Positions 10,406-46,111 are shown, numbered from the stretch's first letter. The stretch: 64,000 nucleotides of DNA from a virus (IMGVR_UViG_3300043539_001475:37211-101210); one strand, 5' to 3'. Numbers and translations are program-made. Notes: generated from the letters alone by a model not told the origin.

Positions 10406-11573
10406 CCAAGAAACAGAAGAAATTTACGCAGAAGTAGTGGAAACAATTGACAACGACTTTTCTCCACTAGACGCACCAGTTAAACAGCGTAGCTACACAC
10501 AACATAAGATGGATGCGCACCAAGTTATGCCAGAACTTGAAGAGCCTACTTTTCAAGCGCCTAGCTATACTGATTTTGACGAACCTACTGAAAAAGAAAA
10601 AGAGCCAGAGAGACCTTTCAATGAAGCTTATTCTGAATTAGACGGAAAAGAAAAGACTATGGGTGCAGAAATGATGGCAGAAATGACATTAGACATATAT
10701 GAAAAAGGTTGTGGGTTATTAGGTAAAATACCAGAAATAAGCGAGGATAAATTAGACAAGCTAATTTCAGAAGGCGAAATCGATGCTGATTCTAAACTTC
10801 CAACTGAAAATGGTGAAATCCCAATTAAAGAATTTGCAGTAGATTATAACGAAAGTATTAAGGAAGCGTTCCAAGTTAGTGACGAATTTAAGGAAAAGGT
10901 AAAACCGCCATTAATTCGTGTTTTCAAAAAACGTGGAGTAGGAATGACAGATGAGCAGTTATTGGCTTACTACTTTGTAACAGATTTAGGAACAAAAGGA
11001 GTGCAGGCTTTTATGCTTAAAAAGACTGCTAACAGCATTTTGGACAGCTTGAAGGAAAATACAATTGCAATTAGAGAGGGCAATGCACAAAGAGAAAGAG
11101 CAGAAAGAGCAGAACGAACAGAAAGAACAGAAAGAGCAGAAAGGGCAGAAAGAGCAGAAAGAGCAGAAAGGGCGGAAAGAGCAGAAAGAGCAGAAAGAGC
11201 ATCTTCTACAACGCAAAAAACAAATTCAAAACCAATAAAAGTAAATACTACCGATACAGAGCAAACAGACAATGATGATTATGTTGAGGTTACAGTTATA
11301 GACAAACCAAAGACAAAGAGAAAGAATATGACCGACATGCAAAAACAAGTTATGAATTTTTCTGAACCCGAAGAAGAAGGAGTTTATTCTATTTTAACTG
11401 ATAGAGGTGGATTTTCAGATGAAATTGTAATGCCAAATAATATGCCTGTTTTTGGAGATAAAAAGATATTGTCCGAGTTAGAGAGATTGAGCCAAGAACC
11501 AGTTAAGCCAGTTCGTAAAACAAGAGCCAATTCTGTAGATAAAAAAACAACTACTCGAAAATCTAAAAAATAG
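10395..11573 (+). CDS. Acidic protein with (ERA/ERT)n repeat, abutting the ATPase gene
   Basis: ORF; 9-bp coding repeat at about 11090-11200. Confidence 0.75.
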   Translation: MNNNQETEEIYAEVVETIDNDFSPLDAPVKQRSYTQHKMDAHQVMPELEEPTFQAPSYTDFDEPTEKEKEPERPFNEAYSELDGKEKTMGAEMMAEMTLDIYEKGCGLLGKIPEISEDKLDKLISEGEIDADSKLPTENGEIPIKEFAVDYNESIKEAFQVSDEFKEKVKPPLIRVFKKRGVGMTDEQLLAYYFVTDLGTKGVQAFMLKKTANSILDSLKENTIAIREGNAQRERAERAERTERTERAERAERAERAERAERAERAERASSTTQKTNSKPIKVNTTDTEQTDNDDYVEVTVIDKPKTKRKNMTDMQKQVMNFSEPEEEGVYSILTDRGGFSDEIVMPNNMPVFGDKKILSELERLSQEPVKPVRKTRANSVDKKTTTRKSKK

Positions 11574-12392
11574 ATGGAAGAAAGAGAACCAAGATTAGGA
11601 GTAGCAGTTGGCAGAAAGGGTTGTGGCAAAACTTATACTACCAAACAAATGATACAAAAATATGTACAAGGAAACCCCTCGAAAGGGGTTATTCCTCGTA
11701 GGGTATTAGTATTAGATGTTAACGATGAGTTTGAGGACATAAGGGCTATTAGGGTTAGTGATGTTATGCGTTTTTCCGCACACCCAAAAGTAGAAGCTAG
11801 AAGGATAAGACCATTGCATGAAAACGGAGTTAGAATGACACTTACTGAAATTCAAGAGGTGCTATTCAAAATCTTAAACGATTATAGAGGTGGGCTTTTA
11901 TTGATTGAGGATATTAACAGATACATTTCTGATTATTTGCCTAATGACCTTGTGGGGGCTATATGCACCAACAGACATACGGATACAGATATTATTTTGC
12001 ATTTTCAATCGGTAGGAAGGATTTCACCTAAAATATGGCAGAACTTGAATTGGATTAGGTTTCACAAAAATACCGATTCAGTAGATAAACACCGTACAAA
12101 GTTTGAGGACAAATACGAATTATTGAAATTAGTAGAGAACTATGTTAATGCCGAGTATCATGCAGGAGACCAAAGAATTTATATTTATGTAGATATAGAT
12201 GATGAAAAAATAAAGGGAGTTGACCGTAAAAAGTTCGATGCTGTTTTAGACCAATATTTATCTGAAAATTACAGAAAGCTAATTTCCCCAATGTTACAAT
12301 CAAAGGATTTAGGTAAGGGCGCAAAGAAATATACACCTCAAGAAGCGGTGGCAATTCAAAAAGAACGAATAACCAAATATTATTTAACATAA
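11574..12392 (+). CDS. FtsK/HerA-superfamily ATPase, candidate A32/P9-type genome packaging ATPase
   Basis: Walker A GRKGCGKT near the N-terminus, Walker B LLLIED, RH arginine motif, HFQS sensor; compact 272 aa with no nuclease domain. Confidence 0.75.
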   Translation: MEEREPRLGVAVGRKGCGKTYTTKQMIQKYVQGNPSKGVIPRRVLVLDVNDEFEDIRAIRVSDVMRFSAHPKVEARRIRPLHENGVRMTLTEIQEVLFKILNDYRGGLLLIEDINRYISDYLPNDLVGAICTNRHTDTDIILHFQSVGRISPKIWQNLNWIRFHKNTDSVDKHRTKFEDKYELLKLVENYVNAEYHAGDQRIYIYVDIDDEKIKGVDRKKFDAVLDQYLSENYRKLISPMLQSKDLGKGAKKYTPQEAVAIQKERITKYYLT

Positions 12393-12415
12393 AAAAAATG
12401 AGTTAGTAGCTCATT
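12391..12415 (-). terminator. Hairpin terminator with U-run on the - strand
   Basis: A8 then AATGAG/CTCATT stem on +. Confidence 0.55.
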
Positions 12416-12510
12416 ATTTATATTTCGGCTTCCACTCCGACAACACAAATATAAAAAAAAATATTATCTTTACCATAAATAATCAATTTTTTAATTAAAA
12501 AAAAGAAAAA

Positions 12511-12774
12511 ATGGAAAAAAAATTAGAAGAAAAAAAAAGAGGGTTTATTGCAAAATTATTTTGTGAAAAAAACGAACCAAGTTCAAAAAGATTTGTTGGC
12601 ATTATAGGGTCAATAACATTATTTAGTACTTTATTTGCAAACAGCTTTACGCATATAAGCCAAGCACCAAGCGAAGCATTGGTAAACGCAGTAGCATTAT
12701 TGTCTTTTGGTGCATTAGGTATCACTGGGGCAGAAAGAATATTTGGTAAAAAAGAAAATAATAACGAACAATAA
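12511..12774 (+). CDS. Putative holin (2 TM)
   Basis: SSKRF followed by two hydrophobic helices; directly upstream of the endolysin. Confidence 0.6.
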   Translation: MEKKLEEKKRGFIAKLFCEKNEPSSKRFVGIIGSITLFSTLFANSFTHISQAPSEALVNAVALLSFGALGITGAERIFGKKENNNEQ

Positions 12775-12786
12775 AAATTAAAAATT

Positions 12787-13254
12787 ATGAAATTATCAGA
12801 GCATTTGGATTTATCAGAAGTAACAAGAAGTGAAACTGCAAAAAGAAAAGGTATTAGCAACATGCCGACACCAGAGCATTTGGAAAATTTTAAAAAATTG
12901 GCTGAAAATATTTTTGAACCGATTAGAAAACATTTTGGAGTGCCAATTCACATTTCAAGTGGATATAGAAGCAAGGCTTTAAATACTGCTATTGGCGGAA
13001 GTTTAACAAGTCAACATTGCCAAGGTGAGGCTATTGATATTGATATGGATGGTAGTTCTAATGGGGTTACTAACAAAATGGTATTTGACTACATAAAAGC
13101 TAATCTAAATTTTGACCAATTAATTTTTGAGTTTGGAACAAAAGATGCACCTGATTGGGTACACGTTTCATTTGAATCAACTGGAAAACAACGTAAGCAA
13201 ATTTTAAGAGCAATTAAAAGTGGTGGTAAAACTGCATACCAACCTTATGCGTAA
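12787..13254 (+). CDS. Peptidase M15A endolysin
   Basis: SSGYRS..LN..IGG, SQH..G.A.D and WVHVS motifs. Confidence 0.9.
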   Translation: MKLSEHLDLSEVTRSETAKRKGISNMPTPEHLENFKKLAENIFEPIRKHFGVPIHISSGYRSKALNTAIGGSLTSQHCQGEAIDIDMDGSSNGVTNKMVFDYIKANLNFDQLIFEFGTKDAPDWVHVSFESTGKQRKQILRAIKSGGKTAYQPYA

Positions 13255-13278
13255 CATTTAACAGTTTAAATAGATTTA

Positions 13279-14394
13279 ATGAAAAACCTATCAAAAGAAG
13301 AGTTATTGAGCAGATTGGAAGCAATCAATAGGAGCAATGCTATTATTTACTTTGACCTGCATGGTACTATATTAGGTGTCAATGACATTTTTTTAGAAGT
13401 AATGGGTTATGGAATAGGTAATCACGAAGAACTTATTGGAAAACACCATAGCACTTTTGTGTGTCAAGAATACGCAAAATCTCTTGAATATGAGAAGTTT
13501 TGGGACATATTAAGAAGCGGTAAATATTATCAAGGAGAATTTGAACGAAGAAAAAAAGATGGAAGTCTTATCAATCTTCAAGCAACTTATAATCCTATTT
13601 TTGATGATAGTGGCAAGATTACTAAAATAATGAAAATTGCTACTGATGTTAGTGCTATCGTTAGTAGTAAAAAACAGATAGATGCTATCAATAGAAGTAC
13701 AGCTCTTATTACTTTTAATGTTGAAGGAATCATAACAGATGTTAATTCTATATTTTTAGAAGCTATGGGATATAAATCTAATGAAAAAACTAAAATAATT
13801 GGAAAGCATCATAGTATTTTTGTAACTTATCAGTATTCACAGTCTGATGAATATAACAATTTTTGGGAAAATTTAAGAAAAGGTAAGTTTTTTGATGGAA
13901 TTTTTGAAAGGGTAAAAGTAGATGGTTCTACAATTTATTTACAAGCATCTTATAATCCTATCCTTGATAGTAAAGGCAACATTACAGATGTGGTTAAAAT
14001 TGCAACTGATATTACGGAATCTATAAATAGTAAGAAAAAAATAGAGGAACTAACAAATAATTTGAAATTTGAATTGGAAAACTCACAAAAACTTAAAGAT
14101 TCAATAGAAGTCGAAAAAAATATGGCTTTGAATGATTTAGATGTAATGATAAAAAAAAGTCAAAGTGAACTGATAAAAATAATCGTTAAATGTGCTTTAG
14201 CAGTAATAATTGGTGTTGGAATTGTAACTACTATATTATATTGGGTAGCGATTGTAACAAACAAAGAAACTCAAATAATTGGCTCAACTTGGAGTAATAT
14301 GTTTAGTGTTTTATTGACAAACGCATTTTCAATAGTTGGTACAATTATGGGCATTAAATATGCCACTCAAGAAAATAATAATAAAAATAATTAA
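13279..14394 (+). CDS. Tandem PAS/PAC sensor protein with coiled coil and two C-terminal TM helices
   Basis: Two repeats of AINRS.A.I.F...G.I, GKHHS.FV, FW..LR.G, LQA.YNPI.D, K.ATD. Confidence 0.85.
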   Translation: MKNLSKEELLSRLEAINRSNAIIYFDLHGTILGVNDIFLEVMGYGIGNHEELIGKHHSTFVCQEYAKSLEYEKFWDILRSGKYYQGEFERRKKDGSLINLQATYNPIFDDSGKITKIMKIATDVSAIVSSKKQIDAINRSTALITFNVEGIITDVNSIFLEAMGYKSNEKTKIIGKHHSIFVTYQYSQSDEYNNFWENLRKGKFFDGIFERVKVDGSTIYLQASYNPILDSKGNITDVVKIATDITESINSKKKIEELTNNLKFELENSQKLKDSIEVEKNMALNDLDVMIKKSQSELIKIIVKCALAVIIGVGIVTTILYWVAIVTNKETQIIGSTWSNMFSVLLTNAFSIVGTIMGIKYATQENNNKNN

Positions 14395-14399
14395 AAATT

Positions 14400-15050
14400 A
14401 TGATTACAACAATTAACAAAAATAGGATATTTACATGGGTATTACTAATATCTTGCTTGGTACTAGTTTCACAACTATTTCAAAAATGCGAAAGTGAGAA
14501 ATTACAATTAGCTAACGTGGAAGCTCTAAATAGTCAATCTAAAGTTTATAAGCTTAAAAATGGACAATTAGTAACTAGCGTTGAAACTTTATCTTATAGC
14601 AATAGTCAGTTAAAAAACTCTATTGTAATGAAAGATAAAAAAGTTAAAGAGCTAACTAATAAATTTTCTAAAGTTCAATCTCTTACAAAGTATGTTACAA
14701 ACACAAAATTTGATACAATAGAGCTTCGATACAAAGATACCGTACCTTGCGTATTTGAAAGAAAAGATAGTTTATTAAAGGAATGGTATCATATAGCTTA
14801 TAAGTCAAATCAAAAGGGAATTGAAATAACCGAACTATCAATACCAGACAGTGTGATTGTAGTTACTGGAATTAAGAGAAAATGGTTTTTAGGTAAGCAA
14901 ACACAAACCACAGATATAACTCATGCAAACCCATTTGTTCAGACTAACAATGTTCAACACATTGAAGTAGTAACTCAAAAAAAATGGTACGATACTTTCC
15001 TATTTAAAGTCGGATTAGGATTTATAGGCGGAGTTTTAATAACTAAGTAA
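14400..15050 (+). CDS. Spanin-like protein
   Basis: N-terminal hydrophobic helix followed by Cys, coiled coil, DT.P beta region, C-terminal KWY..G..GG helix; last gene of the lysis cassette. Confidence 0.5.
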   Translation: MITTINKNRIFTWVLLISCLVLVSQLFQKCESEKLQLANVEALNSQSKVYKLKNGQLVTSVETLSYSNSQLKNSIVMKDKKVKELTNKFSKVQSLTKYVTNTKFDTIELRYKDTVPCVFERKDSLLKEWYHIAYKSNQKGIEITELSIPDSVIVVTGIKRKWFLGKQTQTTDITHANPFVQTNNVQHIEVVTQKKWYDTFLFKVGLGFIGGVLITK

Positions 15051-15079
15051 GTTACCAAAAAAATAATTAACTACTAAAC

Positions 15080-15105
15080 AGCTATCGGAAACGGTGGCTT
15101 TTTTT
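15080..15105 (+). terminator. Intrinsic terminator
   Basis: AGCTATCG-GAAA-CGGTGGCT then T-run. Confidence 0.85.
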
Positions 15106-15162
15106 GTGCTTTGTAAATTAAAAAAAATCTTTTCAAAAAAATTATTTCAGTTTATTTTTAAA

Positions 15163-15200
15163 TAAATGCCTAGATACTTCTTTCATTTAACATAATTTTG
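15163..15200 (+). promoter_or_regulatory. Promoter for the capsid-candidate transcript
   Basis: TAAATGCCTAGATA box at 15163-15176; TAATTTTG at 15193-15200. Confidence 0.5.
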
Positions 15201-15281
15201 GATTGTAATTATATCTGAATATAATTATCATTTAAAATAAGTTTAGTTACAATCATTCTGAAATGAGAAACGAGATTAAAA

Positions 15282-15344
15282 AGGTTACAAAGATTACAAA
15301 GATTACAAAGATTACAAAGATTACAAAGATTACAAAGATTACAA
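15282..15344. repeat. 9-bp tandem repeat (AGATTACAA)x6 plus one variant
   Basis: Read directly; lies within a 41-codon ORF at 15263-15388. Confidence 0.95.
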
Positions 15345-15483
15345 AAACATTAGCCATCGTAATAGATGGAGTTTTAATAGCTAATTAAATAGATAGAAAA
15401 TTTTTATCTTCAAGGATTAGTTTGCCGAACAAAATTTAAGAGTAAAAAAACACAAAACACAAAACAAATAAAAACATAAAAAA

Positions 15484-16185
15484 ATGTCAGTAAGAAATTA
15501 TTTAGCAAGAGCGCAAAGAAGCGCAATGGAGAATTTTTCTAATGCAGATGGATTTATAGATGATGATTTATCATTCTCTGGTGAAGACTTCTTCAATGCA
15601 CAAGGAAATTCAATGATAGGGCAACAAGCGGCTCAAACGTCTCAACCATATATTATAGATATTACATCTACTTCTGGTTCAGCAGTATCAAATTTTGAAG
15701 TATTAGGGTCTTACCAATACATCAATAACGCAGGTTTTACACCAAACGGAGAATTGACTATTGGGTCAATTACAGTTAGTTCTGGAATTTCAGACATCTC
15801 TTATAGAGAGATGCTATATCAATTTATGAACAATCCTTATTCTGTTGGTTTGACTTATATTCAATCAGCTACGGCTAACCAAGTATTAGAAACTCTTTCA
15901 GTTAACACTAAAGATGCAAATGGTAACTTGGCTCAAAAGACTTTAGTTCCGACTATTGACCCTTACCAACAACAAACTACAATCATTGCAATGAAATATG
16001 CTTATCGTATTGATGGTTTCACAAAAATCATCATCCGTCAAATTCTTGCAAATGCAACTGTAAAACTTTACTTCTACCCAGCAGACAACATAAACCTTGC
16101 TCGTGCTTTAGGAGGACAGTCAGTTAGTAAACAATTTGGTTCTCCAAAAGTTGCTAGTGGACAAACTATTAAGATTGCGCAATAA
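15484..16185 (+). CDS. Candidate major capsid protein (beta-rich, jelly-roll-like)
   Basis: Own promoter and strong terminator; high-expression codons (TTC, AAC, ATC, CGT); no TM; alternating beta pattern; paralog at 46907. Confidence 0.55.
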   Translation: MSVRNYLARAQRSAMENFSNADGFIDDDLSFSGEDFFNAQGNSMIGQQAAQTSQPYIIDITSTSGSAVSNFEVLGSYQYINNAGFTPNGELTIGSITVSSGISDISYREMLYQFMNNPYSVGLTYIQSATANQVLETLSVNTKDANGNLAQKTLVPTIDPYQQQTTIIAMKYAYRIDGFTKIIIRQILANATVKLYFYPADNINLARALGGQSVSKQFGSPKVASGQTIKIAQ

Positions 16186-16221
16186 TTTATGTTATTGAGG
16201 TAATCAAATTAATGTATAATT

Positions 16222-16261
16222 AAAGAGAGCAAGTCTGATTTAGTCAACTTGCTCTCTTTTT
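16222..16261 (+). terminator. Strong intrinsic terminator
   Basis: AAAGAGAGCAAGT/ACTTGCTCTCTTT stem. Confidence 0.9.
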
Positions 16262-16277
16262 ATTTAAAATAAAAAAT

Positions 16278-16760
16278 ATGTCAGATTATAACGATATTGC
16301 ATTAAGAAATCCACAAGGAGCTGTAAGCGTTATATCCTCTTTCGGATATGAAATACTAGACCGAAGTAATTTAGGTCAAAGCTTAAACGAGTTAATAGCT
16401 CAAGAAGGTGAGCCAGCTTTAAGAAAAGTTATGGAAATACACCCAGACAAAGATGTTATTTTAGAATTATTTTCTAATAAAACTACAGAACCAGAAAAAA
16501 ACGGGTGTGGCTGTTCGTCTTGTAATGAAAAAAAATCCGATAAAATATTTGAGCGTAACTCTGAAGGAAATTTTGAAAGATATGAAAACTTCATTAACTT
16601 CAACGGAATACTAGAAGAAGCAAAAAAAACTGCTAGCACAACTGCTAACACAAATGCTAACACAACTTCTAATACTAATATTTTAGCACATCAAACAAAC
16701 AATATATTAATAGTCGCAAGTTTATTTATAGCGACTGTTTTAATTCTAAAAATTAAATAA
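16278..16760 (+). CDS. Putative virion membrane protein (helical N-domain, CGCSSC, FINFNG, C-terminal TM)
   Basis: ORF; hydrophobic C-terminus. Confidence 0.7.
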   Translation: MSDYNDIALRNPQGAVSVISSFGYEILDRSNLGQSLNELIAQEGEPALRKVMEIHPDKDVILELFSNKTTEPEKNGCGCSSCNEKKSDKIFERNSEGNFERYENFINFNGILEEAKKTASTTANTNANTTSNTNILAHQTNNILIVASLFIATVLILKIK

Positions 16761-16761
16761 A

Positions 16762-17529
16762 ATGAACGAACTATCAAATTTAGGGGCAGATGTAATTGTA
16801 AACAGCGTTATAGAAAATAGAGGCGATGTTGTAGACTTACTTTTTAAAAACGGAGCAATAGTGCCTGACGACTTAACTAATTTAGAGTTGTCTCAAATAG
16901 TCACAGAGCTTTTAAAAAATTCAAGTAATTTCCAAAATGAATATTTGGATTTTATAACTAATCTTATAATTTCAAAAAATCAGATTGTAACGAGTAATTA
17001 TAGTAACTTAGATGGTGATTTTTACAATGAAGATGAGATGGGTAATTATAATAACGTAGAAGGAACTTTTTACGATGTAGATGAAATGAGTGATTATAAT
17101 AACTTAGAAGGAACTTTTTACGATGAAGATGAAATGAGTGATTACAGTAATGCTGTAGGTAGCTTTTCAGATACTTTTAGCGTAGCTCCAAGTCCTTTTA
17201 CTCCAAAAAATACAGCTCAGACTAGTCCAAGTACAGGTTCAACAAATACAACAACTACAACGCCAAGAACTGGATTTACGTTAGATAAAGGCTTAGATAT
17301 TATAACCAAAGGTTTAAATGCTTTTTTAACTTTAGATACTAACAAAACAAATAGAGCTTTGGCAGATGCTTCTGTAAAAACTACTCAATCTTCAACGATT
17401 ATTAGTACGCCAGATACATATACAAAAACTAAAAAATCAAATACTACAACGTATGTTATTTTAGCATTAGTGGGTGTTTTAGTAGTTGGTGGTGGAATTA
17501 TGTATGCAGTTAAACGTAAAAATTCTTAA
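16762..17529 (+). CDS. Putative virion membrane protein with four Y-x-N-x-x-G repeats and C-terminal TM
   Basis: 48-bp repeat unit at about 16995-17160; TM YVILALVGVLVVGGGIMYAV. Confidence 0.75.
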   Translation: MNELSNLGADVIVNSVIENRGDVVDLLFKNGAIVPDDLTNLELSQIVTELLKNSSNFQNEYLDFITNLIISKNQIVTSNYSNLDGDFYNEDEMGNYNNVEGTFYDVDEMSDYNNLEGTFYDEDEMSDYSNAVGSFSDTFSVAPSPFTPKNTAQTSPSTGSTNTTTTTPRTGFTLDKGLDIITKGLNAFLTLDTNKTNRALADASVKTTQSSTIISTPDTYTKTKKSNTTTYVILALVGVLVVGGGIMYAVKRKNS

Positions 17530-17531
17530 TT

Positions 17532-17843
17532 ATGTCTTTTTTTACAACAGACGCAGGACGAAACACTATAGGTGCAGGTATAAACAGTTTATTGAGCTTA
17601 GGAGTAACAGCAGTAGGTGCTAATCAAGACAGAAAATTATTAGCAGGTCAAGCAAATATTTCGGCTCAACAAAATCAAACCGCAATAGAAGTCGAGAGAG
17701 AAAGAACAAGACAAGCTCAATTAAACCTCGAAGCTTCAAGGGCTAAAGCTCCAGAATCTGGAAGTAAGGCTCTTTACATTGGATTAGCAATAGGAGGAGT
17801 AGTTATTTTAGGAGGTATTATTTTTGCGGTAACTAGAAAATAG
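17532..17843 (+). CDS. Amphipathic N-helix, Q-rich coil, C-terminal TM protein (pilot/penetration-like)
   Basis: Same architecture as 45563 and 46113. Confidence 0.6.
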   Translation: MSFFTTDAGRNTIGAGINSLLSLGVTAVGANQDRKLLAGQANISAQQNQTAIEVERERTRQAQLNLEASRAKAPESGSKALYIGLAIGGVVILGGIIFAVTRK

Positions 17844-17849
17844 AAAAAA

Positions 17850-18074
17850 ATGGGAGCAGTAAAAGGTTACATGGCAGATGTAAAAAGCATTGTGAGTAAG
17901 GACAAAAGAGATATTCTATTGCATACATCAAAGGCTTCGGTTAACGGAGCTGTCACTGGTCTTGTGCTAGGACTAATGATAGGATATTACAAAAACAAAA
18001 ATGTTTATGTAAGTGGTCTTATAGGAGCCGTAGTTGGCGGTGTTGCCACTGCAATTATTGTATCTAAAAAATAA
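17850..18074 (+). CDS. Glycine-zipper 2-TM protein
   Basis: GAVTGLVLGLMIG and GLIGAVVGG. Confidence 0.7.
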   Translation: MGAVKGYMADVKSIVSKDKRDILLHTSKASVNGAVTGLVLGLMIGYYKNKNVYVSGLIGAVVGGVATAIIVSKK

Positions 18075-18079
18075 AAAAA

Positions 18080-20324
18080 ATGGAAAATAAAACCACAATT
18101 GGTATTGGAGTTGTATTGTTAGCAGGTGTTGGGTATTACTTATACACCAAAAACAAAAAAAATCAAACTCCTTTGGTTAATATGCCAAATAAACCTGCTT
18201 TACCTACTTTTGATAGGGATAAAGCTTCAAGAGAGTGGGCGGAATTGCAGTTTAAAAGAGAAGCTGAGTTTAGGGCTAAAAATAACGGCGTGGTTAAGCA
18301 AGGTGTCTCTTTGGTTACTGATGCAAAAACTGGAAAAATAACTGAGGTAGCTGTGATGAATAAAATTAAATCAGAGCTTAATCTTTACTATGACATGTTA
18401 AAAGTTTTAAATTCTATTACAGATGATTCTGATGCTGAATTTATGTTTAATCAATATAAAACAATCTTTAAATCAGGTGATGATAGGAATTATAAACCAG
18501 ACTTAAATACTCAAATTAGAACGGATTCTATTCTAAAAAAATATCCAAGCGCAAGAATCGATTAATTAAAATAAAAAACAAAAAATGGATAATAAAAAAA
18601 TTATTATAGGAGTTGGTGCAGTTGTTTTATTAGGTGTAGTTTACTACATGATGACAAAAAAGAAAGCGCCATATACAATACAATGGAAAGGAGACCCTAC
18701 TGGGGCTGTTTTTGTAGTTATAAATGGTAAGAAATATGGTTTTATTAGTGGAAAAGCATTTGATGCTTATGGGCGTTCGGAGCCTAAATCAGTTACAAAA
18801 GAAGAAGTAGACGCTATTCCTAGTGGGGGAAGGGTTGACGAACTTGGAAAAGTTGTTCCGAATTAAAAACTGTATATGGAAAAGGTTTGAAAAAAAGGCA
18901 TCAATAAAAATAAAAACATGAAGAAATTAAATTTATTAGGTATATTAGCGATAGGAGGAATTGGTTATTACTTGTTAAAAAACAAAAAATCAAAGCCAAT
19001 TTCTTCATCGTCAGCTCCATATACTAAAGAAATAACTTCGGAAAATAAATTAGTTGAATATCCTGTCAATACCTATGCTAAAATTAATACAGCCCCATCG
19101 CCAATTACAAATTGGAGTGGAAATAATAACATGCCAACTCCAATAAAAGTCGATGTTAGCTCCGTTAGTACAATTAAGCCGAGTACAACTACTGTAAAAA
19201 ATAATTCAAGCGTAAAAATAGAAAATGCGTTATCGCCTCTAGGAATTGCTAATCCAAAAGCATTGCCTAAACTTAGTTTAATTGACGCTGTTAGTAAAAC
19301 AGTATTTGATTTATATCCTAAAGACGGAATTTGGAAAGCAGAACCATGGCAATTAAATAATCCTTTATGGGATAGGTATGGAATTGAAAAAGCAATGAAT
19401 GAAAATCACAGTAATTATATTGGAATGGGAACTAAATTTTTAATTTTAAATCCTTCTAAAAGAAACAAATATACTGCTTATGTAGACCAATTTGGAAATA
19501 TAATTGATGCTGGAAGGACTGCAAATGGCACGGCTATGGCTTCTGCTCTTGCAATTTCACAATATAGAATAAAAAATAACATACCTTTTTAAAAAAATAA
19601 AATAAAATGGAAAATTTATCAAAAAATACAAAAATAATAATCGTATTAGGTCTTTTAGGATTATCTTATTATCTTTGGAATCAGCAGAAAAAAAATAAAA
19701 ACACTAATTTAAAAAAATAATAATTATGAGTCAGATACAAAATCAAAATATGTCAAAAAATGAAAAACAAAAATCTCTTACCAAAACTTTGGTTAGTGTG
19801 GGAGCGAGTGTATTGGTGCTGTTTGCAACCGTTTGGGTTATAGGCATTGCTTGGAAAAAAAGCCAAAACTAATAATTTTAGATTATGGATAAAAAAACAA
19901 TCGGGAGCATTTTAGTAGTCTTAGGGATAGGTGCTTTAACTTATCTATATGTCGGCTACCTTAGACCTAAACAACAAGGAATACAAGACGCATTACGAGA
20001 AAATAAAAAATAACAACAATGGAAGATGAATTATTGGGTAAAAGTGCAAATCAGCTATGGAAAGAAAGCGGAACTACTTTAAGTTTTAAAGATTGGATTC
20101 AAAGAGAAAAAGAAAAGGGAATGTTAATTCCTAATAAATTAATTAATGATTCCATTGCTTTAATTAAGAGTAGGGTTGGCATAAGAGATAGCGAAATTAG
20201 CAATGTTTCTTTAGAACAAGGAACTTCTAAAACAGTTTTAGGATTAAATAAATTGGCTATAATATCAAGTGTTTTAATTATTGGGGGGGCTTTGGCTTAC
20301 AACTTTTATAAAAAAAGAAAGTAA
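18080..20324 (+). other. Run of seven single-TM genes (18080, 18585, 18918, 19607, 19726, 19885, 20019)
   Basis: Each has one hydrophobic helix flanked by K; 19607-19720, 19726-19872 and 19885-20013 are under 60 aa and absent from the ORF track. Confidence 0.75.
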
Positions 20325-20326
20325 AT

Positions 20327-21112
20327 ATGAATTTTAGACTTCAGACAAGATACGATGAGATGTGTTTGGTTATCAATTTAGCCGTAAAAACACCAACAGT
20401 TGTAAGAATAAAAATTTATGACGAAATGAAGCCTAAAATAGTCTTTACAGATAGGTATAAAACTGTTTTTTCAGAAGAAACTTTTTATGTTAGATTGCCC
20501 CTTACATCTGATAACATAGTAATTTCTATTTATGATGATAAAATAGGTAATATGCCAAAGGAACAAGAGAATAATATAATGATTAAAGTAATTGATAAAA
20601 TTCCTTTGGAAAAAAGACTTGATGTAGTTGATGTAAAAAATAGAACCGTTGCTAATTTTATAAATTTCGCTCAGAGGTTTTGTTATAATTCAGCATATTT
20701 AGAATCTAATAAAGCGTACCAATCTGATGATGGAGAGTTTTTAATAGAACTTGAACCATATATAACTGGAAAAAACGGAAATACTTTAACAACGCCAGCA
20801 AGAATCTCTAAAGTAACTGGAAGGATTCAAGTGTCAAAAAAAGAATTTGATACCTATACAGTGCCTATGAAGTTTGCTATTTTGTGCCATGAGTTTTCGC
20901 ATTTTTATTTGAATGAAAATATGGACGATGAGAGCGAAGCAGATATAAATGGTTTGTTAATATATTTAGGATTAGGTTATCCTAGAATTGAGGGATACCA
21001 AGCTTTTTTAGAAGTTTTTAAGGACAGCCCTAACGAGCAGAATAAAAAGCGTTTCGACAGAATTGATGCTTTCATACAAAATTTTGAAAAAAATAAAATG
21101 ATTTTACAATAA
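20327..21112 (+). CDS. Zincin metalloprotease-like protein
   Basis: LCHEFSH (HExxH) with downstream E.EAD. Confidence 0.7.
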   Translation: MNFRLQTRYDEMCLVINLAVKTPTVVRIKIYDEMKPKIVFTDRYKTVFSEETFYVRLPLTSDNIVISIYDDKIGNMPKEQENNIMIKVIDKIPLEKRLDVVDVKNRTVANFINFAQRFCYNSAYLESNKAYQSDDGEFLIELEPYITGKNGNTLTTPARISKVTGRIQVSKKEFDTYTVPMKFAILCHEFSHFYLNENMDDESEADINGLLIYLGLGYPRIEGYQAFLEVFKDSPNEQNKKRFDRIDAFIQNFEKNKMILQ

Positions 21113-21117
21113 AAATT

Positions 21118-21390
21118 ATGAAAACAAAAAATATATTGATTGGTGCGGGGGTTTTAGTGGTTGGTTACTTGCTTTTGAAAAAAAGTAAAAATAATCAGCA
21201 ACCTTTTAATATTCAGACAATAGTAAAAGACCAATCTAAAGCAGTTGTAGGCAGACCTATGACAGAAGATGAGTTGAAAAAGTTTAAATGCGAAATGGAA
21301 TATTCTAAATTAGCAAAGCCAATGGTTATGATGCCTCCAGAATATTGGAGTAAACGGAAAGAAGAATGGATGAAAGCTAATTGTAAATAA
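21118..21390 (+). CDS. N-terminal TM protein with Cys pair
   Basis: ORF; TM; C..C pair similar to a segment in 23677. Confidence 0.7.
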   Translation: MKTKNILIGAGVLVVGYLLLKKSKNNQQPFNIQTIVKDQSKAVVGRPMTEDELKKFKCEMEYSKLAKPMVMMPPEYWSKRKEEWMKANCK

Positions 21391-21398
21391 ATAAAAAC

Positions 21399-21968
21399 AT
21401 GAAAATAGATAACAAAAAATTATTGATTGGTGCAGGTATATTAGCCGTTGGAACTGCAATATACCTATTCTTAAAAAATAAACGCAATAAAAGTCAGGTT
21501 GGAATATTAGATGACGAATCGATAGAAATTGACTATAATAACGCAAGTGGTAAACCCTCTTCTACTGCTAGTGGAATAGCAAGCGGAGTAGAAAAACCTT
21601 TGTCGGTTAACGATTATAATACTAGTATAGAAAAGGCATTAAATGATAAAAAATATCAAAATTACATAGGACAAAAAATATATACTCTAGTTGATAATGT
21701 GAATGTAAGAATGGGTGCAAATGTAAATAATGGTATATTTCATAACAAAGCTGGCACAATACCAAAGAAAAAAACATTTATAGGAAAGGTAGTTACTGCA
21801 AAATTAGGAAATGATAAAAAAATATGGTTTGCGGTAAATGAAGAAAACTCAAATATATTATATAATGTTAAAAAGCATTTTAATTGGAGCATTTATTTAG
21901 AAAGAGACCCTTCTCTACGTTGGTTTAGGTCGGATGTAGTAATTGTTAAATTAGATAAAAATAAATAA
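21399..21968 (+). CDS. N-terminal TM protein with SH3b-like domain
   Basis: NVNVR.GA and W-F motifs; DYNNASG. Confidence 0.55.
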   Translation: MKIDNKKLLIGAGILAVGTAIYLFLKNKRNKSQVGILDDESIEIDYNNASGKPSSTASGIASGVEKPLSVNDYNTSIEKALNDKKYQNYIGQKIYTLVDNVNVRMGANVNNGIFHNKAGTIPKKKTFIGKVVTAKLGNDKKIWFAVNEENSNILYNVKKHFNWSIYLERDPSLRWFRSDVVIVKLDKNK

Positions 21969-21970
21969 AA

Positions 21971-22339
21971 ATGGAAATAGATAAAAAAAAATTATTGATT
22001 GGTGCAGGGGTTTTAGTAATTGGGTACTTAGCTTATAAAAGTATGAAAAATAAGTCTACTATATCTAAAACAGTAGTTGCTCCTACTGTTGATACTATTG
22101 TTAAACCTACTGTTCGTACTGCTGTCGCTTTAACACCAGAGCAAGAAAAAATACAATTATTTGAAAGAGGTGTTTTAAGTTATGAAGGGGGCGTTGCTCC
22201 AAATAAAATGGTTTTAGACAATATTGCAAAAACAAGAAATGATGCGCTTGCTAAAATTAAGAATTTAATGCTAGATGCAGAATTTGCTACTTGGAAAAGC
22301 AAACGTACAATAGATAAAAAAGCTCCTCCAAGACAATAA
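21971..22339 (+). CDS. N-terminal TM protein
   Basis: KKLLIGAGVLVIGYLAYK. Confidence 0.7.
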   Translation: MEIDKKKLLIGAGVLVIGYLAYKSMKNKSTISKTVVAPTVDTIVKPTVRTAVALTPEQEKIQLFERGVLSYEGGVAPNKMVLDNIAKTRNDALAKIKNLMLDAEFATWKSKRTIDKKAPPRQ

Positions 22340-22351
22340 AAAATAAAAAAT

Positions 22352-22648
22352 ATGAACTCAAAAACATTAAAATACGGACTTATTGGTGGGGCGGTTTTAG
22401 TAGCTATATACATCTTTAATAAAAAAAGTTTTAAAGGCACATCACAAGACCCTAATATAGACGAGCCTAGCGCAGTTGCAGACAAGGACAAATATTTGTC
22501 ATTAGGTTCAACTGGTTTGGAAGTTATGTTGCTACAAAAAGCTCTTGGAAATCTTGCAGTAGATGGTATTTTTGGAGTTAAAACACAAGCTAGATTAAAA
22601 GAGGTAAAAGGGCTTAGTTTAATCACACTTAATCAATTAAATAAATAA
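22352..22648 (+). CDS. TM protein with PG_binding_1 peptidoglycan-binding domain
   Basis: LSLGSTGLEVMLLQKAL...VDGIFG.KT. Confidence 0.8.
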   Translation: MNSKTLKYGLIGGAVLVAIYIFNKKSFKGTSQDPNIDEPSAVADKDKYLSLGSTGLEVMLLQKALGNLAVDGIFGVKTQARLKEVKGLSLITLNQLNK

Positions 22649-22651
22649 AAA

Positions 22652-22870
22652 ATGAATCGCAAATCATTTTATATATTAGGAGGTTCGTTAGCCGTTATTA
22701 TTGCCGTTTTGTATTTCACAAAAAACAAGGCTATAATAGTTAAAAAAGAAGAGCGAGTTGTCACTGGGGGTCAATCAGCGACTATACCACCAATGGAAGC
22801 TCCGACTTTAAGAACTCCTCCTTTAGTTGGAGATGTTTGGCTTACTCTCAAAGGAATATTTAATAAATAA
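22652..22870 (+). CDS. Small N-terminal TM protein
   Basis: ORF; TM. Confidence 0.7.
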   Translation: MNRKSFYILGGSLAVIIAVLYFTKNKAIIVKKEERVVTGGQSATIPPMEAPTLRTPPLVGDVWLTLKGIFNK

Positions 22871-22887
22871 CAATTAAAACAATAAAA

Positions 22888-23151
22888 ATGGATGACAAAA
22901 AATTTAAAATAGCAGGATTGTTGATTTTAGCTGTTGGGGCTTATTTCTTATATTCAAGGGTAAAGCTTAATCAAAAAGTTGGAGATGTGGACGCTATTAT
23001 TTCTTCTGGAAATTCTTCTAACAAGCCAGTTTTACTTACGTTCCAAAAAGAATTTCTTTCTGCATGGGCTAGTGCTATAAAACAAAGTATCCCTACGTTT
23101 GTATTTGAGAATAAAACATACAACACTAAAGGCGGAAAAGCAATTAAATAA
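22888..23151 (+). CDS. Small N-terminal TM protein
   Basis: ORF; TM; F.F.NKTY tail as in 7706. Confidence 0.7.
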   Translation: MDDKKFKIAGLLILAVGAYFLYSRVKLNQKVGDVDAIISSGNSSNKPVLLTFQKEFLSAWASAIKQSIPTFVFENKTYNTKGGKAIK

Positions 23152-23162
23152 AAAATATAAAA

Positions 23163-23672
23163 ATGGAATCTAAATTTATATCAAAAGCAGGTGATTTTAT
23201 TGCTAATAATAAAAAGCCATTAATATATGTGGGAGGTGCTATTGCAATTGTTGTAATAGGGTATTCCATTATTAGAAAATTGCAAGGTGGTATTGGCTCA
23301 TTTCTAAAAGACAAAAGTGTCGGAGCAAAAGACTTTGTGCCAGTTCAGGTAGATGTTGCAAAATCTACAATTTCAGATGCCATTGCTAATAACTATGCAA
23401 ATCAATTGTTTAACGCTATGGATGGTTTTGGAACTAATTCAAGTGCAATTTACGAGATTATAAATAAGCTACAGCAAAAGGAAGATTTTAGAAAAGTGTA
23501 CAACTCTTTTGGAAGAAAAAGTTACTACATAGACGGAAGTCCTACTGCAAGCGCTTATATTTTTGGTTACAAAAACCTAGATTTAATCGAATGGTTGGAT
23601 AAAGAAGTTGGGTACTCGAATCCATTAACATACAACTTAGTTAAAAAAACAATTAAAAACGCAAATTTATAA
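23163..23672 (+). CDS. TM-anchored annexin-repeat-like protein
   Basis: ANQLFNAMDGFGTN..AIYEII...F.KVYNSF...LDLIEWLDKE. Confidence 0.65.
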   Translation: MESKFISKAGDFIANNKKPLIYVGGAIAIVVIGYSIIRKLQGGIGSFLKDKSVGAKDFVPVQVDVAKSTISDAIANNYANQLFNAMDGFGTNSSAIYEIINKLQQKEDFRKVYNSFGRKSYYIDGSPTASAYIFGYKNLDLIEWLDKEVGYSNPLTYNLVKKTIKNANL

Positions 23673-23676
23673 AAAA

Positions 23677-24570
23677 ATGAGAAAAACATTAGCAAAAAAA
23701 ATGCCTTCTAAAGCATCTTCACCAACTAGCGGTGTTTTATTTAAACCATCAAAAGTTTTAGGTGTAAAAGTTCCAAGACCAGAAAAAAATAAAATTCAGC
23801 CAAGAATTTTAGGCGGAAAAATTGCACGACCATCCTCAAAATTAGTTGCGGATATTTCTTTAGGGCTAACACCTAAAAAGTCAAATGCAAATTTACCTAG
23901 CACAAGTTTAGCATCTTTATCTGATTGCGAACAAAAAGCAAGGCAAAAAATGTCGAATATGAGATTCATATCAGCTAAAGCTATGAGTGATTACAAAACA
24001 GACTTTATAGCTAAATGTATGGGCGTAAAAACAGTACTGCCAGTACCGCAAAGTATTCCACAAAAAGAACAAGAAAATAAATATTCGCAGATGTTAAGTA
24101 TGATACCTAATGAGTTTGTAATTAAGTCAAGTGGCTATAATACATCTTACTATAAAGGCAAATCTAATATTCATACAAAATTAAGCGCTACAACGGTTGG
24201 GATTGGTACTGGTTCTCCAATACAAATTTCTAATGAAGAATTTATAGATGCTTACAGTCAATTTTTGAAACAACCAAAAGTAATGATGCCGATAATGCCA
24301 TCAGCGCCATCAGCGCTATCAGCGCCATCAGCGCCATCAGCGCCATCAGAAATAACATCAGATTCAGAGTTAGAGCAAGAGCAAGAGTTAGAAACTATTA
24401 CTCCTAGTAATTCTGCTGATACTGTTGCTCCTATTAATCCTACTAATAATGGCACATCCAACATTCAAGTTAATAGTGCGCCTAAAACAAAAAAAACTAA
24501 TTACTTATTGTATTTTGTTTTGGCTATTTCTAGCGTAATAGTTTTAAAAAAATTTTTAAAAAAAAAATAA
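23677..24570 (+). CDS. Low-complexity C-terminal TM protein with ADISLGL motif
   Basis: ORF; (SAP)n 9-bp repeat at about 24298-24348. Confidence 0.7.
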   Translation: MRKTLAKKMPSKASSPTSGVLFKPSKVLGVKVPRPEKNKIQPRILGGKIARPSSKLVADISLGLTPKKSNANLPSTSLASLSDCEQKARQKMSNMRFISAKAMSDYKTDFIAKCMGVKTVLPVPQSIPQKEQENKYSQMLSMIPNEFVIKSSGYNTSYYKGKSNIHTKLSATTVGIGTGSPIQISNEEFIDAYSQFLKQPKVMMPIMPSAPSALSAPSAPSAPSEITSDSELEQEQELETITPSNSADTVAPINPTNNGTSNIQVNSAPKTKKTNYLLYFVLAISSVIVLKKFLKKK

Positions 24571-24571
24571 T

Positions 24572-24703
24572 ATGAAAAGCTCAACAATTTTATTAGTCGT
24601 TGGTGGATTAGCAATAGGTTATTTATATTTAGAAAATAAAAAACCACAATCTACCGTATCAAAAAAAGTCAAGCAAATCAATCAAAAGCTAAAACAACTT
24701 TAA
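24572..24703 (+). CDS. Array member 1 (43 aa, truncated; not in ORF track)
   Basis: [24 protein letters not shown]. Confidence 0.7.
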
Positions 24704-24713
24704 AAAAAATAAG

Positions 24714-25895
24714 ATGAAAAATTCAACAATTTTATTAGGCGTAGGTGGATTAGCAATAGCGTATTTTTATTTAAAAAATAAAAAACCACTATCTACTACA
24801 TCGACAACTCAAACAAATGAACCAACAGGTTCAACAGGTTCAACAGGTTCAACAGGTTCAACAGGTTCAACAGGTTCAACAGGTTCAACAGGTTCAACAA
24901 GTTCAACAGGGTCAACAGGGTCAACAGGGTCAACAGGGTCAACAGGGTCAACAGGGTCAACAGGGTCAACAGGGTCAACAGGGTCAACAGGGTCAACAGG
25001 GTCAACAGGGTCAACAGCATTAGTGGAAGAAATGGAAGAAATGGAACCAACGGTACAAACATCACCAACGGTACAAATACCTCCAACGGTACAAATACCT
25101 CCAACGGTACAAACATCACCAACGGTACAAATACCTCCAACGGTACAAATATCTCCAACGGTACAAACATTACCAACGGTACAAACATCACCAACGGTAC
25201 AAACATTACCAACGGTACAAATACCTCCAATAATTATACCTTCTGTGGCTGATATTTCTTTAGGATTACAACCTATAACTACAACTACAAAACCTACAGT
25301 AGACACGGTTGTATCGGCATTTGCAGAAACGCAAACTGAAAACTATAAAAAAGCAAGAGAATTGTCAAGAAATATTAGCGCTCTTTTAATTAAAGTTGAT
25401 TTATACAAAACTAAGAAAACTAAAAATAAAATCAGAAACGAAATATCAGATAAAACAAAGCAAGCAAATGCTTTGGGGTACAAAATATTGCCTTACGGTG
25501 AAATTGTAGCATTGAACGCTGTTGCAGATATTTCTTTAGGATTAAAACCAACAACCGCTAACACACCAAGTTTTTTGACAAGAATTTTAGGAGGAACACT
25601 TACACCAAGTGCTTTAACTCAAGCAAGTAGTATGTCAACTCCAGCAAGTAGTGTGAAAACTCTACCAAGTTTTTTAGGAGGAGGACGAAGTATTACACCA
25701 AGTGTTTTAACTCAAGCAAGTAGTATGTCAACTCCAGCAAGTAGTGTATCAACTCCAATAAATAGTATAAAAATTTTCGGAGGAAGAGTAATTCCAGTAA
25801 GCCCAACAAGTAGTGTAAAAACTCCGCCAATTTTTTTAGGGGGGCGAACAAGCGCAACAACAAATAGTTTTCTGTCAAAATTAAAAAGAAGATAA
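24714..25895 (+). CDS. Array member 2 (TM, GST and PTVQ repeats, NY..AK/NALGYK domain)
   Basis: ORF; shared motifs. Confidence 0.85.
24823..25230. repeat. Coding tandem repeats: 9-bp CAACAGG(T/G)T x about 22, then 18-bp PTVQ(T/I)x units
   Basis: Read directly; two homogeneous blocks (GGTT then GGGT). Confidence 0.95.
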
Positions 25896-25896
25896 T

Positions 25897-26823
25897 ATGA
25901 AAAGTTCAACAATATTAGGGGTTGGGATAATATCAGTAGTTGGTGTGGGTGCGTATTTTTATTTAAAAAATAAAAAACCACTATCGACAACATCGACAAC
26001 AGGGTCAACAGGGTCAACAGGGTCAACAGGGTCAACAGGGTCAACAGGGTCAACAGGGTCAACAGGGTCAACAGCATTAGTGGAAGAAATGGAAGAAATG
26101 GAACCAACGGTACAAACATCACCAACGGTACAAACATCGCCAACGGTACAAACATCGCCAACGGTACAAACATCGCCAACAATTACACCTTCTGTGGCTG
26201 ATATTTCTTTAGGATTACAACCTATAACTACAACTACAAAACCTACAGTAGACACGGTTGTATCGGCATTTGCAGAAACGCAAACTGAAAACTATAAAAA
26301 AGCAAGAGAATTGTCAAGAAATATTAGCGCTCTTTTAATTAAAGTTGATTTATACAAAACTAAGAAAACTAAAAATAAAATCAGAAACGAAATATCAGAT
26401 AAAACAAAGCAAGCAAATGCTTTGGGGTACAAAATATTGCCTTACGGTGAAATTGTAGCATTGAACGCTGTTGCAGATATTTCTTTAGGATTAAAACCAA
26501 CAACCGCTAACACACCAAGTTTTTTGACAAAAATTCTTGGACGAACACTTACACCAAGTGTTTTAACTCAAGCAAGTAGTATGTCAACTCCAGCAAGTAG
26601 TGTGAAAACTCTACCAAGTTTTTTAGGAGGAGGACGAAGTATTACACCAAGTGTTTTAACTCAAGCAAGTAGTGTATCAACTCCAATAAATAGTATAAAA
26701 ATTTTCGGAGGAAGAGTAATTCCAGTAAGCCCAACAAGTAGTGTAAAAACTCCGCCAATTTTTTTAGGAGGACGAACAAGCGCAACAACAAATACTTTTC
26801 TGTCAAAAGTAAAAAGAAGATAA
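25897..26823 (+). CDS. Array member 3 (near-duplicate of member 2 with fewer repeats)
   Basis: Long near-identical DNA with 25000-25895. Confidence 0.85.
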   Translation: MKSSTILGVGIISVVGVGAYFYLKNKKPLSTTSTTGSTGSTGSTGSTGSTGSTGSTGSTALVEEMEEMEPTVQTSPTVQTSPTVQTSPTVQTSPTITPSVADISLGLQPITTTTKPTVDTVVSAFAETQTENYKKARELSRNISALLIKVDLYKTKKTKNKIRNEISDKTKQANALGYKILPYGEIVALNAVADISLGLKPTTANTPSFLTKILGRTLTPSVLTQASSMSTPASSVKTLPSFLGGGRSITPSVLTQASSVSTPINSIKIFGGRVIPVSPTSSVKTPPIFLGGRTSATTNTFLSKVKRR

Positions 26824-45562: not shown

Positions 45563-46111
45563 ATGGAAAAATTAACAGAATCCGAACAAAAAATAGCAGA
45601 GTTCATATACTATTACCCAGATGTTGTGGTTAAAATTCTAAATGACCATGGATATAACATCGACATGGATACTGCGACACTTCATAAAATAAACGAATTA
45701 ACTTACAAAGCGCTTATTATTGATAATAATGTTGAATTTGCATTATCTTTTGATAATGCAATGGCTAACGATGGATACTTAAATATAGCGCCATTGGTAA
45801 TAGCTGGTGTTTTTTCATTAGCGACTAGTTTGTTAGGCGGTTCTATGGCATCAAAGGAAGCTGAAAGAAACAGACAACTTCAAAAAAATATTGCATTAGC
45901 TGGTTTTGCTCAAAATGAGTTATTATCCATGGAGAAGATTAGGTCTGAATCCGAAACGGCAAGAACAAGAATATTAGTCAATAGTTTAGAATCATACCGT
46001 ACAACTCTTCAAAAAGAAGGAACCGCTAGAATAAATGATACTTGGCTTTATGTAACTGGTTTGGGTATAGGCATTGGAATTATTTATGGAATTTATTTAT
46101 TAGCTGATTAA
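45563..46111 (+). CDS. Putative virion membrane protein (helical N-domain, YLN, amphipathic helix, C-terminal TM)
   Basis: N-domain resembles 16762; TAAGTTTG promoter element at 45530-45537. Confidence 0.7.
   Translation: MEKLTESEQKIAEFIYYYPDVVVKILNDHGYNIDMDTATLHKINELTYKALIIDNNVEFALSFDNAMANDGYLNIAPLVIAGVFSLATSLLGGSMASKEAERNRQLQKNIALAGFAQNELLSMEKIRSESETARTRILVNSLESYRTTLQKEGTARINDTWLYVTGLGIGIGIIYGIYLLAD

Follow-up and report, generated by a model that had tools for sequence, protein, structure and literature searches.

Two kinds of virus are well known for maturing their particles with a protease of their own. The adenovirus protease (AVP, adenain) cuts at (M/I/L)-x-G-G↓x and (M/I/L)-x-G-x↓G in several virion precursors. 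The prohead proteases of tailed phages, such as T4 gp21 (consensus L/I-x-E), phiKZ gp175 and the enzyme of HK97, cut the same short consensus site in many head proteins; an N-terminal extension of the shell protein recruits the protease, via capsid targeting or a delta domain, and is removed after assembly. A third solution works with no enzyme at all: the coats of nodaviruses, tetraviruses, reoviruses and picornaviruses cleave themselves as Asn peptide lyases and release membrane-active peptides from non-enveloped particles. Here we analyse a viral DNA stretch of 64,000 nucleotides (nt), referred to as the window, which spans bases 37211-101210 of the 101,210-bp record IMGVR_UViG_3300043539_001475, rated complete by CheckV. 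A block of genes at 15484..21968 encodes a jelly-roll protein that is a candidate capsid protein, a series of small membrane proteins and one predicted zincin metallopeptidase; the jelly-roll protein and several of the membrane proteins share the short motif (F/Y)-x-N-(A/L/V/F)-x-G, which probably is a signal that is read, and which the zincin may cut. Genes are named below by their first nucleotide in the window.

The locus resembles the adenovirus system in having one virus-encoded protease gene within a jelly-roll type of morphogenesis system, and in a short consensus of hydrophobic and Gly or other small residues that recurs in several putative virion proteins, membrane-active ones included. 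Unlike AVP, a cysteine protease with peptide and DNA cofactors, the enzyme here would be a zincin, the motif is a different one, and the system is described from genes and models. The scheme proposed below, with an arm that recruits the enzyme and a site present in many proteins, would by analogy parallel that of the prohead proteases. The latter, however, are serine proteases of the herpesvirus assemblin type that serve HK97-fold capsids, whereas no family of HK97-type capsid, portal, prohead protease or large terminase was found when 118 open reading frames (ORFs) across this genome were scanned against Pfam and PHROGs.

Four proteins of the block carry the motif. The jelly-roll protein (15484..16185, + strand, 233 residues) has it twice in an N-terminal arm, as FSNADG at residues 18-23 (motif 1, nt 15535-15552) and FFNAQG at residues 36-41 (motif 2, nt 15589-15606); a helix at residues 3-16 precedes them, and a beta-sandwich follows from about TSQPYI (residue 52). 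The arm had been described as acidic, and it has seven Asp or Glu and no Lys or Arg in residues 16-45. In the tail-anchored membrane protein 16278 (16278..16760, + strand, 160 residues), FINFNG (nt 16590-16607) comes after a conserved N-terminal domain and a Cys cluster and before a variable linker that leads to the C-terminal membrane helix. The tail-anchored protein 16762 (16762..17529, + strand, 255 residues) has four copies, YSNLDG, YNNVEG, YNNLEG and YSNAVG, within nt 16999-17160, amplified by a 48-bp tandem repeat (16992-17144, 3.2 copies, 86% matches). Finally, in the N-terminally anchored protein 21399 (21399..21968, + strand, 189 residues), YNNASG (nt 21534-21551) lies about 20 residues past the membrane helix. 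Translation and a repeat search thus place these instances, the repeat and the HExxH gene where the earlier note had reported them. It had also listed YLNIAP in the two-helix membrane protein 45563 (45563..46111, + strand). That peptide is present at nt 45776-45793, directly before the first predicted membrane helix, but it does not fit the pattern: it lacks the final Gly, and since the three orthologous sites read YLNIAP, YVNVAP and YNNAVG, we regard it as a marginal variant.

The concentration of the motif in the block was borne out by shuffling. The 12 ORFs of the block (1944 residues) hold 8 matches against 0.19 expected, a number that none of 2000 shuffles equalled, and 4 of the 12 proteins carry the motif against 0.19 expected; these figures are to be read knowing that the pattern was defined post hoc and that 4 of the 8 matches come from a single repeat. 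Across the whole proteome there are 10 matches in 31,812 residues against 3.2 in shuffles, with at least 10 in 5 of 2000 shuffles, and when only this genome is scored, 39 of 359 permuted versions of the pattern do equally well.

Related viruses provide the stronger evidence. We compared 38 viral loci and then 36 further locus records (74 in total, 5 of the 36 repeating contigs of the first set), whose kinship inflates the motif counts. The first 38 contain 216 matches against 38.4 expected. When the 3028 ORFs of the related loci were clustered into families and 1623 distinct members were scored, the forward pattern ranked first of 360 permutations, with 237 of the 1623 members matching (permutation mean 48.9, maximum 202), and the runner-up patterns overlap the same sites. 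The earlier note had staked its reading on conservation in homologues, and the motif does recur at matching positions across the 74 loci. Within the 38 loci, all 35 distinct close homologues of the jelly-roll protein carry motif 1, and 18 of 22 homologues of 16762 have the motif at the matching place. Over whole families it occurs in 57 of 64 distinct jelly-roll members, 55 of 56 in the 16278 family and 41 of 85 in the 16762 family, where copy number varies from 1 to 4. An N-terminally anchored family of 83 residues with no copy in the window carries it in 40 of 41 members. Altogether, about ten mutually unrelated families of small membrane proteins, of both anchoring types, are enriched in the motif, among them fam14 (40/41), fam48 (8/10), fam74 (5/7) and the family of the tail-anchored small protein 20019 (20019..20324, + strand), of which 18 of 52 distinct members have it at about residues 40-45 and the window copy does not. 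Homologues of 21399 keep it less often, at about residues 42-47 in only 3 of 9. The soluble core proteins are free of it (0 of 56 in the 10395 family, 0 of 55 in the PAP2 family, no strict match in the zincin family), and some of the loose matches are false, being glycine-rich membrane helices of the glycine-zipper kind.

The 16278 family illustrates how sharply the motif stands out. In its alignment the motif columns are fully occupied, with conservation of 1.0 for the aromatic residue, 0.82 for Asn and 0.95 for Gly, against an occupancy down to 0.04 in neighbouring columns; it is kept at identities down to 30%, and two apparent exceptions have YSNADG slightly upstream. The motif therefore forms a conserved island within variable, otherwise unalignable linkers, and it is this conservation where the flanks vary, across related loci, that leads us to treat it as real. 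Common descent of the carriers did not emerge from our comparisons. The earlier note had seen a similar helical N-terminal domain in 16278, 16762 and 45563, a likeness that did not hold up: hhalign of the 16278 and 16762 families gave a probability of 3% (E 0.014), and pairwise BLASTP among the three proteins was non-significant.

The alignments also yield a fuller consensus, [D/E]-x-[F/Y]-x-[N/G]-[A/V/F/M]-x-G. In the 16278 family, 43 of 59 instances have an acidic residue two positions before the aromatic one; in the jelly-roll sequences it is Glu in 55 of 59. Among the same number of distinct jelly-roll sequences (59), motif 1 has Asn in 49 and Gly in 10, followed by Ala in 47 or Val in 9, then Asp in 54 and Gly in 57, whereas the Asn position of motif 2 is more relaxed (Asn 22, Gly 13, Ser 10, Arg 6). 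One whole clade has FIGVDG as motif 1 of the jelly-roll arm, another has F-x-G-A-D-G as the motif of the 16278 family, in which Gly replaces Asn in 7 of 59 instances, and in the repeats of the 16762 family the position may be taken by Ser, Gly, Arg or Lys. The description of the motif as Asn-specific must accordingly be given up, as entire clades have Gly, Ser, Arg or Lys there; that the Asn can be replaced argues against any chemistry that needs its side chain, and by the aligned sequences this side chain is not the recognised feature. The flavours of the motif nevertheless co-vary between proteins of one clade: where the jelly-roll arm has FFRADG, the 16762 family has YF[RK][AM]SG repeats, which points to a common reader. 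We are thus fairly sure that the motif acts as a common signal and is read for a function, and the comparisons support its description as a portable short linear signal placed in disordered segments, namely the jelly-roll arm and many unrelated single-pass membrane proteins. An EF-hand-like calcium loop was also considered for N-A-D-G-F-I-D and was rejected by eye, as its position 1 is aromatic.

The family of the jelly-roll protein comprises 699 representatives at 50% identity (E <=0.001). Residues 14-41 of the arm are conserved in 59 distinct sequences. In 125 full-length representatives of the wider family, the arm keeps the helix K-Y-F-x-x-A-x-x-x-A-N-E, the unit aromatic-x-[N/S/G]-x-[D/N]-G and acidic aromatic repeats, often with x-L-N-A-x-G some 10-15 residues before the first strand; 51 of the 125 match the strict pattern, and distant arms contain arrays of aromatic-x-x-A-D-G units. 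The AlphaFold2 (AF2) model of 15484 is of low confidence, with a predicted local distance difference test score (pLDDT) of 59.9 and a predicted template modelling score (pTM) of 0.61, and the arm is disordered (pLDDT <50 for residues 1-53). Its beta-sandwich (residues 55-200) found generic jelly-roll matches only, the best with Z 6.0, in a wide VIA fold search with this low-confidence model. Foldseek of the model against the PDB returned nothing at E <=0.001, a BFVD search gave a single unnamed match (2.2e-4), and the ESM Atlas gave a best score of 0.81 to unnamed clusters and no lead. Aligning 62 distant representatives of the family yielded no stretch of sufficient conservation for a scan query, and searches of viral contigs with three of them (P0024, P0049 and P0088) confirmed no locus. 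From the fold type, position, conservation and family size, we consider 15484 a likely capsid protein, and use that label as a candidate one. A paralogue of 147 residues without the N-terminal arm, found in a genome search, is encoded at 46907-47350 (+ strand) and matches residues 94-169 of 15484 with E 1.7e-8. Elsewhere, locus L034 has two tandem copies of the jelly-roll gene (9267-10693), and locus L078 (9824-11017) encodes a paralogue of 397 residues whose N-terminus is not the acidic arm but a hydrophobic L-F-F-I-P-K-K sequence.

A candidate reader is encoded in the same block. The protein 20327 (20327..21112, + strand, 261 residues) combines a beta-sandwich (residues 1-96) with an M48-like peptidase domain (residues 109-255). 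The earlier note had called it the only protease-like gene of the block, and it proved to be the sole HExxH ORF among 144 ORFs of at least 50 residues in the whole 101,210-bp genome; family scans found no other protease family in the block. Its HEFSH (residues 188-192, nt 20888-20902) lies within a predicted helix (179-195) and is invariant as HEF[S/A]H in 31 distinct sequences and in a 21-sequence alignment. It is followed by E202-x-E204-A-D206 in a second predicted helix (202-215), and H188, E189, H192, E202, E204, A205 and D206 are all invariant. In gluzincins of the M48 type, a signature of the E-x-x-A-D kind supplies the Glu that is the third metal ligand, and E202 and E204 on the following helix are the candidates here. 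The AF2 model is confident (pLDDT 90.7, pTM 0.90), and residues 109-255 match BepA best (6sar, Z 8.7 over 121 residues, root-mean-square deviation 4.2), then 3c37 (Z 6.8), Ste24 (4il3, Z 6.5) and ZMPSTE24 (6bh8, Z 6.4). The confident fold and invariant metal site support the assignment of 20327 as an M48-like zincin and predicted peptidase. Like the M48 peptidases BepA, HtpX, Ste24/ZMPSTE24 and Oma1, and like the minigluzincins, it would have HExxH on the active-site helix and then a Glu helix, here with E-x-E-A-D; members of the M48 family act on membrane or envelope proteins. Unlike them, 20327 is virus-encoded, has no membrane helix, bears an added N-terminal beta-sandwich, and separates HExxH from the Glu helix by far fewer residues (10-12).

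The zincin family comprises 1117 clusters at 90%, all unnamed. Zincin genes are present in 67 of the 74 related loci (33/38 of the first set and 34/36 of the further one); of the seven in which none was found, five extend for <3 kb on the downstream side of the jelly-roll gene, L050 is truncated, and L078 is a locus from another part of its genome. The order 10395-like, jelly-roll, 16278-like, 16762-like, zincin is kept in 34 of the 36 further loci, the two exceptions being one cut contig and one locus that lies in another part of a genome. In the 33 first loci with a zincin gene, too, its order relative to the jelly-roll, 16278-like and 16762-like genes is unchanged. Gene order thus supports placing the zincin in the core of the module that these genes form.

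We propose that one viral partner reads the motif during particle assembly and that the likeliest reader is the M48-like zincin of the module, which would also cut it; we give this reading a probability of about 45%. First, the amphipathic helix of the arm (residues 3-16) would dock on an exosite formed by the C-terminal helices and the beta-sandwich of the zincin. Docking would then carry the enzyme into the assembling particle, where it could cut the motif in the arm and in the linkers of nearby membrane proteins, possibly between the small residue (N/G/S) and the hydrophobic one; a cut before the hydrophobic residue is proposed because it fits the preference of gluzincins for a hydrophobic P1' residue. 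The earlier note had supposed that such processing would mature the capsid and unmask membrane-active helices. For the first step, a complex of 20327 and zinc with residues 1-60 of 15484 was modelled with ESMFold2 from shallow alignments of our own and with three controls. The interface score ipSAE was 0.69 (0.56, 0.71 and 0.69 in separate runs), against 0.01 for the best of the three controls; the score mark applied is reached by 116 of 157 solved complexes and by 2 of 215 mismatched pairs. The partner had a pLDDT of 49 or more, and no less than 41% of contacts were common to the runs. The arm contributes residues 2-4, 6-8, 10-11 and 14-16 of the helix and residues 18-22 of motif 1, the zincin residues 28, 43-46, 51-54 and 220-247, and the interface takes in the invariant Y6, L7, A10, A14, E16 and N20 of the arm and R43, R220, F231 and N239 of the zincin. 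The model supports binding of the zincin to the jelly-roll arm, and we read the modelled interface as a docking site (exosite) that would recruit the zincin to the shell protein. Some prohead proteases are recruited likewise, by docking to the shell protein.

Several points weigh against cutting by the zincin. The catalytic residues (188-192 and 202-206) are outside the confident contacts, and the main contact is the arm helix, which is missing from the membrane proteins; as the contacts are at the helix and not at the catalytic site, the model links the zincin with the arm, and not with the motif. In addition, shallow alignments of our own and the added zinc fall outside the calibration of the tool, and the fold of the partner is uncertain. 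With Z from 6.4 to 8.7, the fold matches of the zincin rank as moderate according to the search tool itself. Foldseek of its model gave nothing at E <=0.001, no Pfam (including Peptidase_M48, E <=0.01), PHROG or NCBIfam family matched it, and a 21-sequence zincin profile found no chain at E <=10 among PDB sequences. That two genes are neighbours is by itself a weak indication that they encode an enzyme and its substrate, the copy number of 1 to 4 in the 16762 family suits multivalent binding at least as well as cutting, and all of the evidence is computational.

These points bring forward the best of the alternatives, which we still consider somewhat unlikely, that the motif serves docking or tethering with no cleavage. 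It would bind a pocket on the jelly-roll shell or another assembly hub and so register the membrane proteins with the shell or sort them into the particle membrane, and the zincin would have another task (entry, exit or quality control) or merely be carried by the arm. Asn or Gly at the third position of the motif and Gly at its end are residues that favour tight turns, and could fix the bound peptide in a shape that displays both hydrophobic positions; the variable copy number and the aromatic-x-x-A-D-G arrays of distant arms look like multivalent binding, the positive-inside rule would put the motif on the same membrane face for both anchoring types, and the confident contacts avoid the catalytic site. 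The small membrane proteins that link capsid and membrane in PRD1 (P16 and P30) and PM2 (P3 and P6) are likewise to be registered with a jelly-roll shell, albeit, to our knowledge, with no shared linear motif. On the other hand, no receptor pocket has been identified, the jelly-roll model gives the arm no placement, and a constant zincin with a complete metal site in the block would be left unexplained.

That the motif has no shared reader at all, and is a recurrent linker or turn element due to descent, domain shuffling or a composition rich in Asn, Gly and aromatic residues, appears quite improbable. The modest excess in this genome, which so many permuted patterns equal, the glycine-zipper helices among the loose matches and the kinship of the loci would all be compatible with it. 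Yet it does not account for a conserved island in linkers that otherwise cannot be aligned, nor for its presence in families with no detectable homology and opposite anchoring, the acidic residue at position -2 kept across families, or the co-variation of flavours within a clade. Even less probable is a modification sequon for a viral glycosyl- or sulfotransferase. Many instances do read N-x-S/T (position 5 in the 16278 family is Ser in 22 and Thr in 15 of 59 instances), the genome encodes glycosyltransferases, a sulfotransferase and an adenosine phosphosulphate (APS) kinase, and the Tyr residues in the acidic context of the 16762 repeats resemble sulfation sites; however, the best-conserved instance, FSNADG of the jelly-roll protein, has no Ser or Thr, and as Gly for Asn and Phe for Tyr are tolerated, what all instances have in common can be neither N-glycosylation nor Tyr sulfation. 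Asn-dependent self-cleavage of the Asn peptide lyase type, which would release membrane-active peptides with no protease, is hardly credible: the pairs N-A, N-V, N-L and N-F look like known sites of capsid self-cleavage in having Asn before a hydrophobic residue, and the motifs adjoin membrane-anchored or amphipathic parts, but unlike in those coats whole clades have Gly, Ser, Arg or Lys in place of the Asn at orthologous positions, which excludes such chemistry as the common denominator, and the motifs occupy disordered linkers in a wide range of unrelated proteins rather than a folded capsid domain able to supply catalytic groups.

If the zincin does read the signal, the motif becomes a sequence rule that predicts particle components for a very large group of uncultured viruses. 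Cutting by the zincin would provide the first hint that membrane-containing phages mature by proteolysis, and a functional parallel to the adenovirus protease with a different catalytic class; should the motif be a docking peptide instead, it would reveal the way in which a jelly-roll shell and the membrane proteins are brought into register. The hypothesis is open to testing with cloned genes, for which culture of the virus is unnecessary. The words 'protease', 'proteolytic' and 'cleavage' are absent, by a term search, from the main text of a review of membrane-containing phages (PMC6356626), and the abstracts and listings of a limited literature collection contained no paper on this virus group, the motif or a phage zincin maturation protease.

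The surroundings of the block give some indication of the virus type. Upstream of 15484 lie several cell-wall hydrolase genes, an M15 cell-wall peptidase (12787-13254) outside the motif block, a PAP2 lipid phosphatase (8917-9561), which is a core gene of the module with 55 distinct homologues in the related loci, and genes for a protein of 392 residues and a P-loop ATPase of 272 residues. Downstream there are about 20 consecutive small ORFs, most with a single predicted membrane helix. The ATPase (11574..12392, + strand) is the candidate packaging ATPase of the module; it has weak AAA_22 and DUF87/HerA matches, the latter in 12 of 19 family members and all under the curated cut-offs, its top PDB sequence matches are at E 0.008-0.03, and it is found in 38 of 38 related loci. 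The ORF of 392 residues (10395-11573) was considered as a double jelly-roll capsid protein and dropped, as its consensus is acidic and Pro-rich and has no family match. Collagen-like tail-fibre proteins are also encoded in the genome, as judged from the family scan. The gene layout suggests a large, tailless and membrane-lined virus. Among the 50,697 phage records searched for cultured relatives, megablast with window positions 10000-30000 and tblastn with the jelly-roll protein and the ATPase found no match. Taken to its full extent, the proposal would be a new lineage of apparently tailless, membrane-lined bacterial viruses of about 50-100 kb with a combined zip-code and cut-site system, in which an arm-recruited zincin processes the arm and at least 10 membrane-protein families at an eight-residue signal. 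We put this forward tentatively and find it doubtful as a whole; if true, it would give membrane-containing prokaryotic viruses their first example of a maturation-protease system.

Some further observations concern the membrane proteins and the flanks of the block. Shortly before the motif, 16278 has a C-G-C-x-S-C cluster (residues 77-82, window 16506-16523), and its three Cys residues are conserved at 0.70, 0.73 and 0.45 in the 56 sequences of the family. The gene that follows 45563 (46113-46496) has no motif in the window, whereas its homologues in loci L079 and L081 start with YLNADG or FLNAGG. Between 18080 and 23151 of the window, at least eight adjacent small ORFs share a near-identical N-terminal anchor, M-x-x-K-K-L-L-I-G-A-G-V-L-V-x-G-Y-L followed by a Lys-rich stretch, with unrelated C-terminal parts, which resembles a shared signal-anchor cassette. 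In the 430-bp gap before the jelly-roll gene, the 9-bp unit AGATTACAA is repeated 8.1 times with 95% matches (window 15273-15345) and may form a regulatory array. Sulfotransferase, APS-kinase-like and heptosyltransferase-like genes (43306-45493) adjoin the second jelly-roll module (45563-47350), and by their predicted families they may serve sulfation or glycosylation of the virion or the host surface. Three large ORFs of 1233, 763 and 960 residues with UspA1-like repeats (33719-42843) have a G+C content of 0.38-0.40, against about 0.30 elsewhere in the window. In the related locus L042, one ORF (122-5923, genome 19122-24923) encodes a polyvalent protein of 1933 residues with a Zeta-toxin-like kinase, DUF5824 and ART-PolyVal, and another (10892-18619, genome 29892-37619) a protein of 2575 residues with no family match. 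Lastly, ARAGORN places a transfer-messenger RNA (tmRNA) gene on the minus strand of the window at 59162-59518.

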